Positions 13,199 to 32,000 of a DNA stretch of 32,000 nt are shown in pieces. The stretch covers positions 2,058,367 through 2,090,366 of the forward strand of contig NZ_LT963434.1 in the NCBI RefSeq assembly GCF_900199515.1, given 5' to 3'. The first letter of the stretch is position 1. Every line of letters starts with the position of its first letter. The DNA is from Massilicoli timonensis (GTDB taxonomy: Bacteria > Bacillota_I > Bacilli_A > Erysipelotrichales > Erysipelotrichaceae). The translations under genes were made by a program, and so were the position numbers. The notes below the pieces were generated by a model, which was not told the origin of the DNA, made no database searches, and was given only the letters and a program-made list of their open reading frames with translations.

Positions 13199-13387
13199 AG
13201 AGATGGATATCAAAAGAAATGTCAGCAGTCGTGCGGCGTTTCTTTTTTTGCATAGGACATTTGCGGGGAATGGGATTGTATAAAAAAAGATGATTTTGTA
13301 AACGATTACACTTTCTTTTTTTGAAACGTGCTTTTTCAGTTTGATTATATTATAATTACGATATGAGATAGAAAAGGAGAAACCATT

Positions 13388-15025
13388 ATGAATCGTGCTA
13401 TTTATATTACCGGTCATAAAAATCCCGATACTGATTCGATCTGTGCGGCGATCGCTTATGCGCATCTGAAGCAAAGCTGCGGAATTGATGCGATCGCATG
13501 TCGCCTGGGCGAACTGAACACAGAAACGGAATTTGTCCTGAATAAGTTTAAGGCGCCGCTGCCTAAGCTCATTCACAGTGCCCGCTGTAAGCTAAGCGAC
13601 ATCGACATGGATCAGGCAGAACTGGTCAGTCCCGATACGACGATCAAAGAGGCGTGGGATCTGATCATTCGCATCAAGAATAAATCACTGTTTGTCGTGG
13701 ACGAGCAGCAGCGTTTGATCGGTGTCGTTTCGATGTCGAGCTTATCGAATGTGCTGATGAGTGATTTTAAGAACATCCGTGAATTTATGATGAAGACCCC
13801 ACTATCTAATATACAGAAAACATTGAATGCGACCTATATCGTAAAAAGCGATCTGTATAAAAGCAGCGGTTATGTGCATATTTTGGTGTCAGGCGATCTG
13901 GCGGATTGTGAAGATGTCTTTGAAAATTCGATCGTGCTGCTGGGCAATCAGCCGGATATTCAAAAGAAAGCGATCTTGCAGGGGGCAAGCTGTATGATCG
14001 TGATCGGCAATCCGCAGGTAAGCGAGGAAATCATTGATCTGGCAAAAGAACGGGACTGTTCGATCCTCTCTACGCCATATGACGCATTGCAGGCAGCGCG
14101 CTTGATTTATCAGACACCTTCGATCGACAATGTGATGGGTTTAGATGTCATGGTATTCCATGATCGGGAATTTGTCGATGATGTATCGGATAAGATGAGC
14201 AAGACGCGTTTCAGAAGTTATCCGGTGTTGGATGAGCATAAACGGGTCATCGGCGCCGTATCGCGTTTTCATCTGTTCAATTATGAAAAAAAGAAGCTGA
14301 TCTTATTGGATCATAATGAGCGTTCACAGAGCATCAATGATCTGGAAATGGCAGAAGTGCTGGAAATCATCGACCATCACCGCATCGGCGATATTGAAAC
14401 GAGCAATCCGATCAATTTTCGCAACCAGCAGATCGGCAGCACCTGTTCCATTATTGCGACGATGTATAAAGAGCAGGGCATTGAGCCGACACCGACGATC
14501 GCGGGATTATTATGTTGTGCGATCATATCGGATACGATGAATTTTAATTCTCCGACATCAACGGCACTGGATCGCTCGATTGCCGATGATCTGGCACAGC
14601 TTGCGGGCATTGATACGGATGCGCTCGCCAAAGAAATGTATGAATCGGTGGCGACGCTGCGTTTTAAGTCTTTCGGGGAAATTCTTTATAATGATTTTAA
14701 GGAATTTTCCATAGAAGGCACCAGACTGGGGATCGGACAAATCAATCTGTTGGATATTCGTGAACTGGAGATCATCAAGAAAGAGTTTGTCAATTACATG
14801 GAAAAGGTCAATAATGCGAATCAATATGATCTGCTGATGATGGTCTTTACCAATGCGGAAGGCAAGGGCAGCAATCTGGTGTTTGTGGGAAGCAAGGGCT
14901 GGATCATCGATCAGGCATTCAAAGATGCGCAGAAGGAAAAAATGTATTTTGTGGAGAATGTCGTATCGCGTAAAAAACAGCTGATTCCGGCAATCTCAAA
15001 AGTATTGAAGGAAGTATCGCTTTGA
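13388..15025 (+). CDS. CBS-domain-containing family II (DHH) inorganic pyrophosphatase
   Basis: 545 aa. DHH N-terminus ITGHKNPDTDSICAAIAYA, an inserted CBS pair / DRTGG-like region, DHH motif IIDHHRIG and a DHHA2-type C-terminus. RBS AAGGAG. Confidence 0.8.
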   Translation: MNRAIYITGHKNPDTDSICAAIAYAHLKQSCGIDAIACRLGELNTETEFVLNKFKAPLPKLIHSARCKLSDIDMDQAELVSPDTTIKEAWDLIIRIKNKSLFVVDEQQRLIGVVSMSSLSNVLMSDFKNIREFMMKTPLSNIQKTLNATYIVKSDLYKSSGYVHILVSGDLADCEDVFENSIVLLGNQPDIQKKAILQGASCMIVIGNPQVSEEIIDLAKERDCSILSTPYDALQAARLIYQTPSIDNVMGLDVMVFHDREFVDDVSDKMSKTRFRSYPVLDEHKRVIGAVSRFHLFNYEKKKLILLDHNERSQSINDLEMAEVLEIIDHHRIGDIETSNPINFRNQQIGSTCSIIATMYKEQGIEPTPTIAGLLCCAIISDTMNFNSPTSTALDRSIADDLAQLAGIDTDALAKEMYESVATLRFKSFGEILYNDFKEFSIEGTRLGIGQINLLDIRELEIIKKEFVNYMEKVNNANQYDLLMMVFTNAEGKGSNLVFVGSKGWIIDQAFKDAQKEKMYFVENVVSRKKQLIPAISKVLKEVSL

Positions 15026-15040
15026 TAAAGAGGTGATGGG

Positions 15041-15922
15041 ATGCGTGATGAAAAGGAAATGCTGGGACTGATCATTGAAACAGCACGTTTGGATGAACGC
15101 ATCAAAGCGGTATGGATGAATGGGTCTCGTGCCAATCCTCATGCAAAGCGGGATTTGTTTCAAGATTACGACATTGTTTATCTGGTGGAGGAAACAAAGC
15201 CGTTTTATGAAGATGCTTCTTGGATCGATCGTTTCGGCGAGCGGCTTTATGCACAGCGTCCCGATGAAGTGGATCGATGCAATGGTCTGCCGGTGGATTT
15301 TGATCAATGCTATGGCTGGCTGATCCAGCTTGCGGATGGCAATCGCTTAGATCTGCATGTGGTAACAAAGCAGGATCATACGTTTTTAGAGGACGGTATG
15401 TATGTGGTGCTGCTTGATAAAGAGCATCGTTTTGATGAGCGGCATCTGCCAAGTGATGCTTTCTATTATGTGAAAAAGCCGACACAGAAGCAGTTTTGGG
15501 CATGTTGCAATGAGTTTTGGTGGTGCCTGAATAATGTAGCGAAGGGATTGTGGCGAAAGGAAGTCCCTTATGTGCATGATGCGCTGTATCAGGGCAGTCA
15601 TCCACAGCTTATCAGGCTGTTGTACTGGCAGGTCGGATTTGCACATGATTTTCAGGTTTCCTGCGGGAAAAGCGGCAAGTACCTTGAGGACTATCTGGAA
15701 AGGGATGTCTGGAATCGCTTTTTGCATACCTATGCCGGTTTTGAGATAGCAGATCTTTGGCAAGCAGTTTTCTGTATGTGCGATCTGTTTATGGAAACCG
15801 CGCAGGAGCTGGCAAAGCGCTATGGCTATCACTATGATCAAAAAGAAGCCGATGCCGCCTATGCGCATTTACGCCATGTGCATGGACTGCCGGCAGATGC
15901 CAAGGCGATTTACGAGAGATGA
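15041..15922 (+). CDS. Aminoglycoside 6-nucleotidyltransferase, ANT(6)/AadK-like
   Basis: 293 aa. N-terminus MRDEKEMLGLIIETARLDERIKAVWMNGSRANP...FQDYDIVYLV closely resembles my recollection of AadK/AadE streptomycin adenylyltransferases. Starts 15 nt after the PPase stop. Confidence 0.75.
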   Translation: MRDEKEMLGLIIETARLDERIKAVWMNGSRANPHAKRDLFQDYDIVYLVEETKPFYEDASWIDRFGERLYAQRPDEVDRCNGLPVDFDQCYGWLIQLADGNRLDLHVVTKQDHTFLEDGMYVVLLDKEHRFDERHLPSDAFYYVKKPTQKQFWACCNEFWWCLNNVAKGLWRKEVPYVHDALYQGSHPQLIRLLYWQVGFAHDFQVSCGKSGKYLEDYLERDVWNRFLHTYAGFEIADLWQAVFCMCDLFMETAQELAKRYGYHYDQKEADAAYAHLRHVHGLPADAKAIYER

Positions 15923-15930
15923 AATAGTAG

Positions 15931-15955
15931 AAAAAGGGCAAAGCTGCTCTTTTTT
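15931..15955. terminator. Weak A/T-flanked hairpin after the ant(6)-like gene
   Basis: AAAAAGGGC-AAAGCT-GCTCTTTTT, a short stem with one G:U pair. Confidence 0.35.
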
Positions 15956-16014
15956 AATCGCTATATGGTGTGAAAAAGACAGATCAATAAGTCTCTTTTT
16001 CCTGTTGTAAGCGC

Positions 16015-16043
16015 TTGACAATATATATATATATATATATACT
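16015..16043 (+). promoter_or_regulatory. Sigma-A-type promoter whose whole spacer is an (AT)10 tract
   Basis: TTGACA 16015-16020, a 17-nt spacer made only of AT repeats, TATACT 16038-16043. The lipoprotein CDS starts 36 nt downstream. Confidence 0.6.
16021..16040. repeat. Dinucleotide simple-sequence repeat (AT)10
   Basis: Perfect atatatatatatatatatat read directly from the sequence. Confidence 0.98.
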
Positions 16044-16078
16044 GGTATTGAATAAATAAGCGGGAAAGGAAAAGGGAA

Positions 16079-16687
16079 ATGAATACTATGAGAGAAAGCA
16101 AGGCTTTTTATAAAAAAATGATGATGATTTTATTAGTAGGTATGATGGGGGTCGGTGTTGTCGGCTGTGGGAGCAGCGATATAAAAGAAGAAGCACCGAA
16201 AGAAGATAATGTTGAAAAAGAAAAGCAGAATGAGCAAGATAGTATCAAAATCGGCCTAGCTGAGCAAGCGAAATACCTTCCAAATCAAACAATGAATAGT
16301 GAAGCAACAAAAGCACTTACAGCGGGTACACTTATTGATGCAGAGGATCTTACGGAAATGCCGGATGAACTTGTTTTAGAGGAGGCAGAACTGGCGATTG
16401 GATATCGTTATAATACACTTTATAATACAGAGGGATCTAATCCTGTTCCAACTGAAATGATTGATGGAATGCCATGGGAATTAAATGAAGAAGGGCATAC
16501 AATCACAACGACAGATGGAGCTAGAATGGAAGTGATATTTTTGGGCATATCCATTGTTCCAATCGCTGATTATCAAAAGGATAAGAGTACAGAGAAATGG
16601 AATAAAATGATTGATTCTGATGGGTTGCTAGTACCTGCGGGCGAAGTGCTTTCAGAAGAAAAAATCAAAGAATTAGATGCAAAGTAA
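16079..16687 (+). CDS. Lipoprotein of unknown function
   Basis: Signal peptide with lipobox (KKMMMILLVGMMGVGVVGC|GSS), then an acidic low-complexity linker. No family recognised. Confidence 0.75.
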   Translation: MNTMRESKAFYKKMMMILLVGMMGVGVVGCGSSDIKEEAPKEDNVEKEKQNEQDSIKIGLAEQAKYLPNQTMNSEATKALTAGTLIDAEDLTEMPDELVLEEAELAIGYRYNTLYNTEGSNPVPTEMIDGMPWELNEEGHTITTTDGARMEVIFLGISIVPIADYQKDKSTEKWNKMIDSDGLLVPAGEVLSEEKIKELDAK

Positions 16688-16730
16688 CAGGATCGTAATC
16701 AAGCATTTTTGAAAATGAACAGGAAAGATG

Positions 16731-16762
16731 AAAAAAACTTCGGAATGACCCGAAGTTTTTTT
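16731..16762. terminator. Bidirectional intrinsic terminator
   Basis: AAAAAAACTTCGG-AATGAC-CCGAAGTTTTTTT between convergent genes. The T-run abuts the ABC gene stop at 16761-16763. Confidence 0.8.
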
Positions 16763-18608
16763 AAGCATCACTATCTTCAAATTGTGATTGATAGAGTTTG
16801 GCATAGAAACCGTTTTGCGCAAGCAGTTCTTCATGTGTTCCTTTTTCTACGATATCGCCGTGATCCATGACTAAGATCATATCAGCGTCACGGATCGTCG
16901 ATAAACGATGTGCAATGACAAAGGATGTTCTGCCTTTCATCAGATTATCCATTGCTTTTTGAATACTGATTTCCGTTCGAGTATCGACAGAGGAAGTGGC
17001 TTCATCAAGGATCAAGATCTGTGGATCTGCCAAGATGGCGCGGGCAATGGTAAGCAGCTGCTTTTGACCTTGTGAAATATTAGAGGCTTCTTCATTTAAG
17101 ATGCTGTCATAGCCATCCGGCAGGGTATGGATGAAGTGATCGACCTGTGCTGCCTTTGCGGCCGCATAGATTTCTTCATCGGTAGCGTCCTGCTTGCCAT
17201 AGCGAATATTGTCTTTTAATGAAGCATGATAGAGCCAAGTATCCTGCAATACCATGCCGAACAAGCCTCTTAGATCATTGCGCTTAAACTGCTTGATATC
17301 TAACTGATCGATCAAGATCGCCCCTTGGGTAACATCATAATAACGCATCAACAGCTTGATCATCGTTGTTTTACCGGCGCCGGTCGGCCCGACGATCGCC
17401 ACTTTTTGTCCCGGTTTTACCACAGCGGTAAAATCGTTGATGATCGTCTTGTCCGAGGTGTAGCCGAAATTGACATGGGCAAACCAAACTTCGCCTTTCA
17501 GATCTTCGGTGCTCAACGCATCTACCGGATCTGGTGTTTCTTCCTGCTCTTCCAAGAAAGCAAAGACACGTTCCGCAGCCGCCATCGTCATCTGCATCGT
17601 ATTGGAAATCTGTGAGATCGACTGAATCGGCTGGTTGAAGGAGCGTACATACTGAATAAAAGCCTGAATATCACCGATCGTGATCGTTCCTTGCGCCGCA
17701 TAGAAACCGCCTAAGATGGTAATTAAGACGTAACCGATATTGGAAATAAAACTCATGATCGGCATCATCAGACCGGAAAGGAATTGAGATCGCCAAGCAC
17801 TGTTGTAAAGCGAATCGTTTAATTCATTAAACTGTGCAACCGAGCGCGCTTCGCCGTTATAGGCCTTTACGATCGTATGCGCACCATACATTTCTTCGAT
17901 ATGTCCGTTTACATGTCCTAAATAATCCTGCTGCTGGCGGAAGTATTTTTGTGAATACTTGATGACGACCATGATAAACAGCATGGAGATCGGCAAGATC
18001 AGCAGCGCCACAAGGCTCATCTGCCAACTGATGGAAAACATCATGACCAGATAGCCGATCAGCTGGGTCAAACTGGTAATGACCTGTGTCGATATCTGAT
18101 TTAAGTTCTGCTGAAGCACATCGACATCGTTGGTAACTAAGGACAGCACTTCACCGTATGGACGTGTGTCATAGTAGGATAATGGCAGCTTATGCACCTT
18201 TTCTTCGATTTCTTTCCGCAGCTTATAGGCGATCTTATTGGAAATACCGGTCATTAAGAAGCCCTGTACGAGGTTACATGCCGCTGATACGATATAAAGT
18301 CCCAGCAGGAACAATAAGATCCTGGCGATCTTGTCAAAGTCAAAGCCTTTGCCGTTTTGTGCGATCAGATTCATCAGTCCTTCAAATAGAACCGTTGTCG
18401 CTTCACCCAGGATCTTCGGCCCGACGATCATGAAAATGGTTGCCAGCGCCGCAATGACCATGACGATTACCATCGTAATTTTATAACTGCCCAGATAGTG
18501 CAGCAATTTCTTTAATGTACCTTTGAAGTCTTTGGCTTTTTCACCGCTCATAGCAGGACCATGTCCCATCGGCCCTCTGCGTCTTGGATTCGTTGTTTTT
18601 TCGCTCAT
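16761..18608 (-). CDS. ABC exporter permease/ATPase, consensus-site subunit (module 2)
   Basis: Start at MSEKTTNPRRRGP (ATG 18608), 1 nt after the upstream stop. Walker A GPTGAGKTT, ISQGQKQLL, Walker B LILDE, H-loop IAHRL. Confidence 0.9.
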   Translation of the reverse strand: MSEKTTNPRRRGPMGHGPAMSGEKAKDFKGTLKKLLHYLGSYKITMVIVMVIAALATIFMIVGPKILGEATTVLFEGLMNLIAQNGKGFDFDKIARILLFLLGLYIVSAACNLVQGFLMTGISNKIAYKLRKEIEEKVHKLPLSYYDTRPYGEVLSLVTNDVDVLQQNLNQISTQVITSLTQLIGYLVMMFSISWQMSLVALLILPISMLFIMVVIKYSQKYFRQQQDYLGHVNGHIEEMYGAHTIVKAYNGEARSVAQFNELNDSLYNSAWRSQFLSGLMMPIMSFISNIGYVLITILGGFYAAQGTITIGDIQAFIQYVRSFNQPIQSISQISNTMQMTMAAAERVFAFLEEQEETPDPVDALSTEDLKGEVWFAHVNFGYTSDKTIINDFTAVVKPGQKVAIVGPTGAGKTTMIKLLMRYYDVTQGAILIDQLDIKQFKRNDLRGLFGMVLQDTWLYHASLKDNIRYGKQDATDEEIYAAAKAAQVDHFIHTLPDGYDSILNEEASNISQGQKQLLTIARAILADPQILILDEATSSVDTRTEISIQKAMDNLMKGRTSFVIAHRLSTIRDADMILVMDHGDIVEKGTHEELLAQNGFYAKLYQSQFEDSDA

Positions 18609-23273: not shown

Positions 23274-23306
23274 AATGTAAAATTTAAGGAAAGGGGCTTG
23301 ACAGAG

Positions 23307-23396
<90 letters not shown>

Positions 23397-23525: not shown

Positions 23526-25583
23526 ATGATGAAAGTGAAAAAGTGGCTCAGTTTATTTACCGTTATTTGCTTGGGATTTCTTGTCGCCGTATCACCAAAA
23601 AATGTTTTTGCGGCAGGCAATCTGCAAGTACGCAATGGTACAAGTTCTGTTACATTGACACAAACAAAGGCGGATGTTTTTGGGGATGGTACTGTTTCAT
23701 ATGATGCAGATACCAATACGCTTACCTTGAATCACGCCACATTGGCACCAACGACCAATCCATCTATGGCGGCGATTTACGATACAAGAGGGGTAGGATT
23801 AAAGATTGTGGTAAAAGGAGAAAATAAGATTGTCCATGATCAAGCAATCTATATCACACAAAACGGCAATTTGGAAATTAGCGGAGAAGGCAGCCTGCGT
23901 GTTGAGGGAAGCGTTTATGCAATTCAAGGATCTGGAAATATCACAATCGATCAAGCAAAGGTAACTGCCAGCACGACGGGCAGCAGTAATGCCGGTATTC
24001 ATGCCAGTGGATCGATCTTGTTGCGGAACAAGTCGAATGTAAGCTCAAGTGCAGCGAATTATCATGGCATTTACGCTACAAAAGGGATCACGGTTGAAAA
24101 CAGCACACTGATCGCTTCTTCTCGTTGTACAAATGGTGCTTACAGTGGTATAGAAGCATCAAGCGGCGACATTACGATTGCCGATTCCGATGTTCGCGTA
24201 ACGGCGAATATAGGTGGGATCGCAACAGCGATCGGCGATATTACGACGCAAAACAGTAAGGTATCTATTATATCTGGCGATGCTGCGATCAATGGAAAAT
24301 CAGTTGCGATTTCTGGCGGATCGGTTGATGCGACGGCTCTAAATGGAGAGGTAAATGCGATTTATGCGTGGGATGGTCCGATAACGATTAGCGAGGGGGC
24401 AACGGTGATTGCCAATGCGGAAGATGAAAGTGCATTTCCGGCAATTTACGGCAATGGCGGCATTGTGATCAAAAACAGCAAAGTAAGTGCCGTATCCGGA
24501 GGCGATGCCGCAATCTTCTCACCGGAAACGATCATAATTAGTGAGAAAGCAGAGATAGATGCGAATGGCTATTATGCTGCGATCAATGCCAGTGAAGACG
24601 TTATGATCTCTGACAGCGTGGTGAACGCAACCGCAGCAGAAGATGTTGCGATTTATTCAGGAGCAGACGTGGCAATCACAAACAGCGCCGTATATGCAAA
24701 CGGTGTTATAGGTAATGAAGGTATTTTGGCAGATGGCACTGCATCCATTGCTCATTCATGGATCGTAACATCAGGTGCAGAAACATTTGAAGGTGAAATC
24801 GAAAATACAGCATTGTTTCATCAAACCAACGGTACTCTCATCGGCACTTTATCTTTGTCAAATGATGTGGTACTGCCTTTCGGTTCGTCGTTGAACTTTG
24901 CTGATGGTTCCCAACTTACAATCGAAAAGGGTACTACCTTTACCAACAATGGAACAATAACCGGATCCATTCGTATCGTTAACAACGGTACGCTCCTTTG
25001 CAACAGCCATGTGGGAGGCATAGCAGATTGTGTGCAGTGCGCAGTATGCGCCGTCTGCGGCAATGCATATGGAAACGTGGATGTGATGCACCACAAGCAT
25101 TTAGAAAAAGTGAATGCCGCTTCAGCTACCCATTTACAAGAAGGCAATATCACATATTGGCATTGTGATGACTGTGATCGATATTTTACCGATCAAGATG
25201 CAAAAAAGGAAATTACTTATGCCGATACGATTCTTTCAAAACTGCCTCATCATGAAAACTTGGATACATGGGAAGCAAATGAGCAGATGCACTGGCAAGT
25301 CTGCACCTGCAAAGAAAATATAAATGAAGGGAAGCATACCTTTGTATGGGTAATCGATCAGGAAGCGAGCGCAACTGAAAATGGATTGAAGCATGAAGTC
25401 TGTACGGTATGCGGTTATAAAAAAGCAGCTGTAGAAATTTTAGCAACAGGTGAATTGAACGAACAACCAACGACAACGCCTTCTACCGGCGACAACGGCA
25501 GTGCGGCATTGTGGCTTGTTTTGTTACTCGGGTCTGGCATTATTTTACATACGCTTGGTACTGCTGAGAGAACTAAAATATAA
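23526..25583 (+). CDS. Cell-wall-anchored surface protein: signal peptide, ~14 degenerate beta-helix-type repeats, Cys/His-rich module, PSTGD sorting signal
   Basis: SD AGGAG 23517-23521 with ATG 23526/23529. Signal peptide MMKVKKWLSLFTVICLGFLVAVSPKNVFA|AG. About 22-26-aa periodic units of the form xIxAxGxITIxxSxVxA. CxxC/HxH-rich region. C-terminus is PSTGD + hydrophobic helix + RTKI. Confidence 0.8.
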   Translation: MMKVKKWLSLFTVICLGFLVAVSPKNVFAAGNLQVRNGTSSVTLTQTKADVFGDGTVSYDADTNTLTLNHATLAPTTNPSMAAIYDTRGVGLKIVVKGENKIVHDQAIYITQNGNLEISGEGSLRVEGSVYAIQGSGNITIDQAKVTASTTGSSNAGIHASGSILLRNKSNVSSSAANYHGIYATKGITVENSTLIASSRCTNGAYSGIEASSGDITIADSDVRVTANIGGIATAIGDITTQNSKVSIISGDAAINGKSVAISGGSVDATALNGEVNAIYAWDGPITISEGATVIANAEDESAFPAIYGNGGIVIKNSKVSAVSGGDAAIFSPETIIISEKAEIDANGYYAAINASEDVMISDSVVNATAAEDVAIYSGADVAITNSAVYANGVIGNEGILADGTASIAHSWIVTSGAETFEGEIENTALFHQTNGTLIGTLSLSNDVVLPFGSSLNFADGSQLTIEKGTTFTNNGTITGSIRIVNNGTLLCNSHVGGIADCVQCAVCAVCGNAYGNVDVMHHKHLEKVNAASATHLQEGNITYWHCDDCDRYFTDQDAKKEITYADTILSKLPHHENLDTWEANEQMHWQVCTCKENINEGKHTFVWVIDQEASATENGLKHEVCTVCGYKKAAVEILATGELNEQPTTTPSTGDNGSAALWLVLLLGSGIILHTLGTAERTKI

Positions 25584-31882: not shown

Positions 31883-32000
<118 letters not shown>

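Follow-up and report, generated by a model that had tools for sequence, protein, structure and literature searches.

A candidate promoter-spacing switch in an (AT)n tract upstream of a variable lipoprotein gene in a gut Erysipelotrichaceae species

The surface lipoprotein Vmm of Mycoplasma mycoides is described as switching ON and OFF at the level of transcription through dinucleotide indels in its promoter spacer (PMC2628566, PMC10502178), and poly-TA tracts that differ in length (N=10-16) are reported upstream of several lipoprotein genes of the M. mycoides cluster (PMC3053259). At the hifA/hifB promoters of Haemophilus influenzae, (TA)9-11 lies between the -35 and -10 elements, and changes in unit number alter both spacing and expression (PMC2651432, citing van Ham et al. 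1993); the original prediction for the DNA studied here invoked this TA tract as its precedent, in terms that agree with the account in PMC2651432. Other surface-protein genes carry mononucleotide repeats in or beside the promoter spacer and vary in transcription, as with the poly-A of Mycoplasma hyorhinis vlp and the poly-G of Neisseria meningitidis porA (PMC10502178, PMC3639595). Such repeat-driven contingency loci have been recorded mostly in pathogens, and whether that restriction is real or a product of sampling bias is a question raised in PMC11868660. For gut commensals, accounts of phase variation deal mainly with invertible promoters and epigenetic switches, largely in Bacteroidales. 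The Erysipelotrichia, the group considered here, are walled relatives of the Mollicutes.

The locus described below lies near the middle of a 32,000-nt stretch of DNA from Massilicoli timonensis (the window, meaning the whole stretch analysed; all positions are counted from its first base). An (AT)n tract fills the spacer of the promoter of a predicted lipoprotein gene, and is probably a contingency locus that acts as an expression switch by changing promoter spacing. The mechanism is well known; the lineage and the ecological setting are new, and literature searches found no such switch described in Erysipelotrichaceae or gut Firmicutes. Public metagenome assemblies alone reveal promoter-spacer variation of 6-12 units on clonal backgrounds in this commensal Firmicute.

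The promoter and its transcription unit

The features of the locus are these:

15930-15961, + strand: intrinsic terminator of the upstream adenylyltransferase gene (11-bp stem, loop AAAG, T6 run)
16015-16020, + strand: -35 hexamer TTGACA, perfect consensus, the same in all 31 related contigs
16021-16040, + strand: (AT)10 simple sequence repeat, the entire promoter spacer; almost certainly hypermutable
16038-16043, + strand: -10 hexamer TATACT, a 5/6 match with A at position 2 and T at position 6
16049-16051, + strand: predicted transcription start, placed from promoter geometry about 7 nt past the -10
16065-16076, + strand: purine-rich ribosome-binding region AAAGGAAAAGGG, read from the sequence, with an A4/A5 length polymorphism
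16079-16687, + strand: lipoprotein CDS, 202 aa by ORF translation, with a disordered linker at about residues 31-61 and a beta-rich domain at 65-202
16079-16168, + strand: lipoprotein signal peptide, residues 1-29 plus Cys30 (predicted to be lipid-modified), with lipobox VVGC
16731-16762, both strands: bidirectional intrinsic terminator common to the lipoprotein gene and the convergent ABC-transporter gene

The first three bases of TATACT are themselves repeat bases, and the 17-nt spacer consists of repeat units alone. The original prediction had placed TTGACA, (AT)10, TATACT and this all-repeat spacer at just these coordinates, all of which are exact. Tandem Repeats Finder reports 10.5 copies at 16021-16041. 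The length of (AT)10 is far above chance expectation: an AT run of at least 16 nt occurs in 0 of 100 dinucleotide-preserving shuffles of the window. A consensus scan of 15000-17500 ranks TTGACA-17-TATACT first among sigma-70-type sites, at 11 matches out of 12. The predicted 5' UTR is about 29 nt long, and the segment 16044-16085 folds without structure (dG 0). The A4/A5 polymorphism of the ribosome-binding region falls at 16069-16073, is linked to cassette haplotype (see below), and shifts the SD-to-ATG spacing by 1 nt. A 46-aa minus-strand ORF that runs across the tract (15961-16101) was rejected as a translation artefact of the repeat.

The gene upstream (15041-15922) is co-oriented with the lipoprotein gene and encodes a streptomycin adenylyltransferase (Pfam Adenyl_transf PF04439, E = 3e-105). 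Its terminator folds with dG -14.7 kcal/mol (z = -3.4), a value equalled by 0 of 200 shuffles, and the bidirectional terminator beyond the lipoprotein gene folds with dG -19.5 (z = -4.3). A consensus scan shows no other promoter-like site between the upstream terminator and the lipoprotein CDS. Since terminators insulate both sides, the lipoprotein gene should depend on the repeat-containing promoter. A divergent arrangement like that of hif is ruled out, the upstream gene being co-oriented and terminated, and there is no notable divergent ORF.

All same-species contigs keep the adenylyltransferase gene, at 98-100% identity, so that it looks like part of the core genome and not like a mobile gene. 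An Rfam search over the whole window finds only the start of a 16S rRNA gene, whose 5' end (31884-32000; RF00177, 80.8 bits) runs off the window end; no known RNA element coincides with either the AT tract or the second repeat described below. Elsewhere in the window, a T7/T8 homopolymer polymorphism is found at 13236-13243, in the intergenic region between a histidine-kinase gene and a DHH/CBS/DRTGG/DHHA2 gene, the shorter allele being carried by the window and by contigs L001 and L008.

Tract length in related contigs and the proposed switch

The lipoprotein, its paralogues and the two flanking genes were looked up by exact protein match; with one DNA-pattern scan added, this yields 31 independent contigs. 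The look-ups supplied most of the alleles; the pattern scan of metagenome contigs gave a single match (L007), and the one hit of a pattern scan of genome contigs, in a Candidatus Uhrbacteria MAG (L022), was discarded as a chance match. Because their flanking genes are 98-100% identical to those of the window at the nucleotide level, the contigs are taken to represent the same species. One of them comes from GCA_024462795.1, and its lipoprotein shares a 90%-identity cluster with a protein that NCBI assigns to Candidatus Onthosoma merdavium, Erysipelotrichaceae. The lengths observed, which are metagenome consensus values that may be off by one unit in single cases, are distributed as follows:

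n=6 AT units: 6 contigs
n=7 AT units: 2 contigs
n=8 AT units: 4 contigs
n=9 AT units: 10 contigs (the commonest allele)
n=10 AT units: 3 contigs and the window
n=11 AT units: 3 contigs
n=12 AT units: 3 contigs

In all 32 alleles (31 contigs plus the window) the tract is pure and varies in 2-nt steps, and both hexamers are invariant. Length differs even where nothing else does. Over 6591 nt, contig L001 shows neither mismatch nor gap against the window, yet has n=9; the same is true of L003 over 3809 nt (n=12) and of L004 over 2915 nt (n=11). An alignment of 11 sequences over 3.5 kb contains 65 substitution sites, and the AT tract is its sole multi-allelic indel site, two further indel sites being 1-nt, bi-allelic and in homopolymers. 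Each of the three cassette haplotypes has several tract lengths, so the length changes must be recurrent. Since n varies on substitution-free flanks, the tract must also mutate far faster than the DNA around it. Contig L030 ends 2 nt past an (AT)12 tract and L005 begins 9 nt past the tract, breaks that possibly reflect length heterogeneity within a sample. A tract of fixed length in populations and strains was the outcome that the original prediction named as counting against it; instead, 6 to 12 units are found among the 32 alleles, and length varies even between backgrounds that show no substitution across kilobases.

PCR stutter is common at dinucleotide repeats, and some contigs do break at the tract, so the lengths might be errors made by short-read assemblers at a low-complexity site. 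The tract, however, is only 12-24 nt long, below k-mer and read lengths; its seven length classes recur in 31 contigs from various studies and assemblers (SPAdes NODE_, MEGAHIT k141_, Logan); the flanks are error-free over kilobases; and a range of 6-12 units far exceeds one-unit stutter. The probability left for such an artefact is negligible, and the AT tract is almost certainly a genuine hypermutable locus.

Length polymorphism by itself does not prove a regulatory effect. The tract could be a neutral microsatellite, unstable but without phenotype, with the gene driven from elsewhere or insensitive to length, and the breadth of the distribution, which is not centred on 10, speaks for this. 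Against it stand the lack of any other promoter-like site between the upstream terminator and the CDS, the placement of the tract precisely between a perfect -35 and a good -10, neither of which changes in any of the 32 alleles, the uninterrupted state of the tract in each allele, and the presence of a second variable repeat at a nearby surface-protein promoter, a pattern typical of contingency genes. Neutrality is thus a very improbable account of the locus.

As a promoter-spacing switch, the tract would work as follows. Slipped-strand mispairing during replication would add or remove AT units, each changing the spacer by 2 nt and rotating the hexamers relative to each other by about 70 degrees. 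At n=10, with the optimal 17-nt spacer, the lipoprotein gene would be transcribed; at n=9 or n=11, which give spacers of 15 and 19 nt, transcription should drop sharply, and tracts longer or shorter than these would be further out of register. Because 2-nt steps skip the tolerable spacers of 16 and 18 nt, sharp switching is favoured. RNA polymerase would be expected to use TTGACA/TATACT, and expression to follow n reversibly within a clone. Such a switch would serve to vary a surface antigen or receptor under immune, IgA or phage pressure.

Modelling of hexamer pairs by consensus for n=4-14 indicates that n=10 alone produces a strong pair, TTGACA-17-TATACT (11/12). The prediction that the window allele is ON is therefore borne out at the level of the model, in which no other length places TATACT 17 nt from the perfect -35. 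Most of the assembled consensus alleles are predicted to be OFF or low: the predicted ON allele is a minority (4/32), and n=9 and n=6, the two most frequent lengths, fall among those predicted to be OFF. Either OFF is usually favoured or the assignment of ON and OFF is incomplete. If the former, expression would usually be disfavoured in vivo. Expression is often disfavoured in vivo for surface proteins that are immunogenic or serve as phage receptors.

The output may be multi-state rather than strictly binary, as other pairs in the consensus model are also in register. With n of at least 11, a TATATA within the tract stays 17 nt from the -35; with n=6, TGgTATTGA, which resembles an extended -10 element, comes to stand 17 nt from the -35. 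Expression could then be graded, a 'volume control' with full output at n=10, a constant weak TTGACA-17-TATATA promoter at n of at least 11, a second promoter at n=6, and the remaining lengths OFF. The over-representation of n=6 (6/32 alleles, on all three cassette haplotypes) fits such a scheme, not being obviously predicted for a length four units away from a sole ON state. But neither TATATA nor TATTGA has the conserved -7 T, the commonest allele (n=9) is out of register under every model, and short tracts may pile up through lower mutation alone. Graded control of this kind seems unlikely, and a switch with n=10 as its ON state is the reading carried forward here.

The lipoprotein, its cassettes and a second variable repeat

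The original prediction that the CDS starting at 16079 has a classical lipobox signal holds in each of its parts. The N-terminus reads MNTMRESKAFYKKMMMILLVGMMGVGVVGC, followed by GSS; its n-region, MNTMRESKAFYKK, carries positive charges at R5, K8, K12 and K13, and the hydrophobic h-region, MMMILLVGMMGVGVV, leads into the lipobox V-V-G-C at Cys30. The lipoprotein pattern [LVI][ASTVI][GAS]C thus occurs within the first ~35 residues together with the charged and hydrophobic regions. The signal-peptide region is nearly invariant across paralogues that are otherwise 42-54% identical, and the mature part is hypervariable between strains. A predicted lipoprotein signal joined to a hypervariable mature part is the kind of surface product associated with contingency loci, and the protein is likely to be under immune or phage selection.

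The mature protein belongs to no Pfam or NCBIfam family. Its AlphaFold2 model has pLDDT >90 over residues 65-202, a beta-rich domain that follows the disordered linker. A Foldseek search of the PDB with this model gives no meaningful match, the best TM-scores being about 0.1; the top hit, an antibody light chain fold at TM ~0.1, was dismissed as noise. Only about 28 relatives (by size, 25 at 170-230 aa, three at 111-123 aa and one of 1155 aa) turn up when 1.8 billion cluster representatives are searched exhaustively with HMMER, and lipobox-like ...GC motifs occur near the N-terminus in 14 of the 14 relatives inspected. A scan of genome contigs by protein alignment shows no relative. By these searches, the family is lineage-restricted and known from a few dozen clusters.

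The 21 other window ORFs of at least 150 aa have a mean GC3 of 0.521 (sd 0.046); that of 16079-16687 is 0.302 (z = -4.8), and local GC at the gene falls to 0.37. The remark in the original prediction that this gene favours A/T-ending codons is thus upheld, but its suggestion of foreign origin is not: the family occupies the same syntenic site in all contigs of the species, and cassette exchange within the lineage explains the low GC3 equally well.

Within this one species the lipoprotein locus holds either one gene, as in the window, or two tandem paralogues (forms read in window 16079-16760 and in contigs L008-L013, L015, L023 and L039). The two-gene forms are P0006 with P0003, or a P0001-like protein with P0004, and their products are 44-54% identical to the window protein. 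The promoter, the ribosome-binding site, the first ~40 residues and the last ~14 residues are nearly invariant across cassettes. Since the 44-nt intergenic spacer of the two-gene form repeats the ribosome-binding region but has neither promoter nor AT repeat, both tandem genes would share one switch. The window gene follows gene 1 until about 42 nt short of the stop codon; beyond that point, its coding end and 3' flank match gene 2. This implies that the single-gene form is the footprint of a deletion, presumably by recombination between the conserved 3' ends.

No AT repeat is found upstream of two distant homologues, P0011 and P0009, and P0009 (39% identity; L036 150-215) has an ordinary non-repeat TTGACA-16-TATAAT promoter. 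With no repeat at either and a fixed promoter at P0009, the AT repeat is a derived feature of the locus in the window species. A further homologue, P0007 on contig L014, lies in a different context, beside bioY and birA; this contig begins only 13 nt ahead of the ATG, which may point to heterogeneity within the sample.

About 7 kb downstream of the AT tract is another promoter, TTGACA (23298-23303), 17 nt, CATAAT (23321-23326), with 11 of 12 matches. An (AAGC)15 repeat begins 2 nt past CATAAT, at 23328-23387, in what is predicted to be the initially transcribed region or leader. The gene behind it (23529-25583) encodes a 684-aa signal-peptide protein with no match in Pfam or NCBIfam, and its GC3 of 0.39 is the second-lowest in the window. 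Copy number varies here too: L031 has 7 units and an imperfect one, L032 has 13 and the window 15. Of the contigs examined (L031, L032, L033 and L034), two end inside the repeat.

That variable repeats occur at two surface-protein promoters less than 8 kb apart suggests a contingency repertoire of several loci. It is possible, if still doubtful, that this walled gut Erysipelotrichaceae species runs a multi-locus repeat-driven 'phasome' that combines the (AT)n cassette locus with (AAGC)n at the large surface protein. The conserved 5' end (promoter, ribosome-binding site and signal peptide) and the conserved 3' end would then permit cassette exchange and tandem duplication or deletion. If true, this would bear on the issue, posed in PMC11868660, of whether pathogens alone have repeat-driven phase variation at several loci.

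Comparison with known systems

The locus has the traits of the promoter-spacer repeat class: the position and purity of the repeat, its polymorphism in the population, and a (predicted) surface product. With the mononucleotide repeats of vlp and porA the difference lies in the step, which there is 1 nt and gives graded output, whereas the tract described here changes by 2 nt. The resemblance to hif is in the dinucleotide TA tract between the hexamers. In hif, however, that tract sits in the overlapping divergent promoters of two operons, in contrast to the single, unidirectional promoter of the lipoprotein gene, and it controls the fimbria of a Gram-negative pathogen rather than the lipoprotein of a Firmicutes commensal.

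The closest analogue of the putative AT switch is Vmm of M. mycoides. Like Vmm and its counterparts in the M. mycoides cluster (e.g. Vmc of M. capricolum), the locus has a TA/AT tract in the -35/-10 spacer of a surface-lipoprotein gene. The differences are several. The window protein has a folded beta-rich domain (predicted), while Vmm-type proteins are short and repetitive; the host has a cell wall, lives as a gut commensal, has a genome of 45% GC and is known mostly from metagenomes; and the locus varies by cassette replacement as well, while its switching is a prediction from sequence. Vmm and Vmc are offered as analogues of mechanism, with no claim of homology, and the Pfam and NCBIfam searches reveal no kinship between the proteins. 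Should the 'phasome' prove real, it would represent a variable-lipoprotein strategy of the Vmm/Vmc kind operating outside the mycoplasmas.
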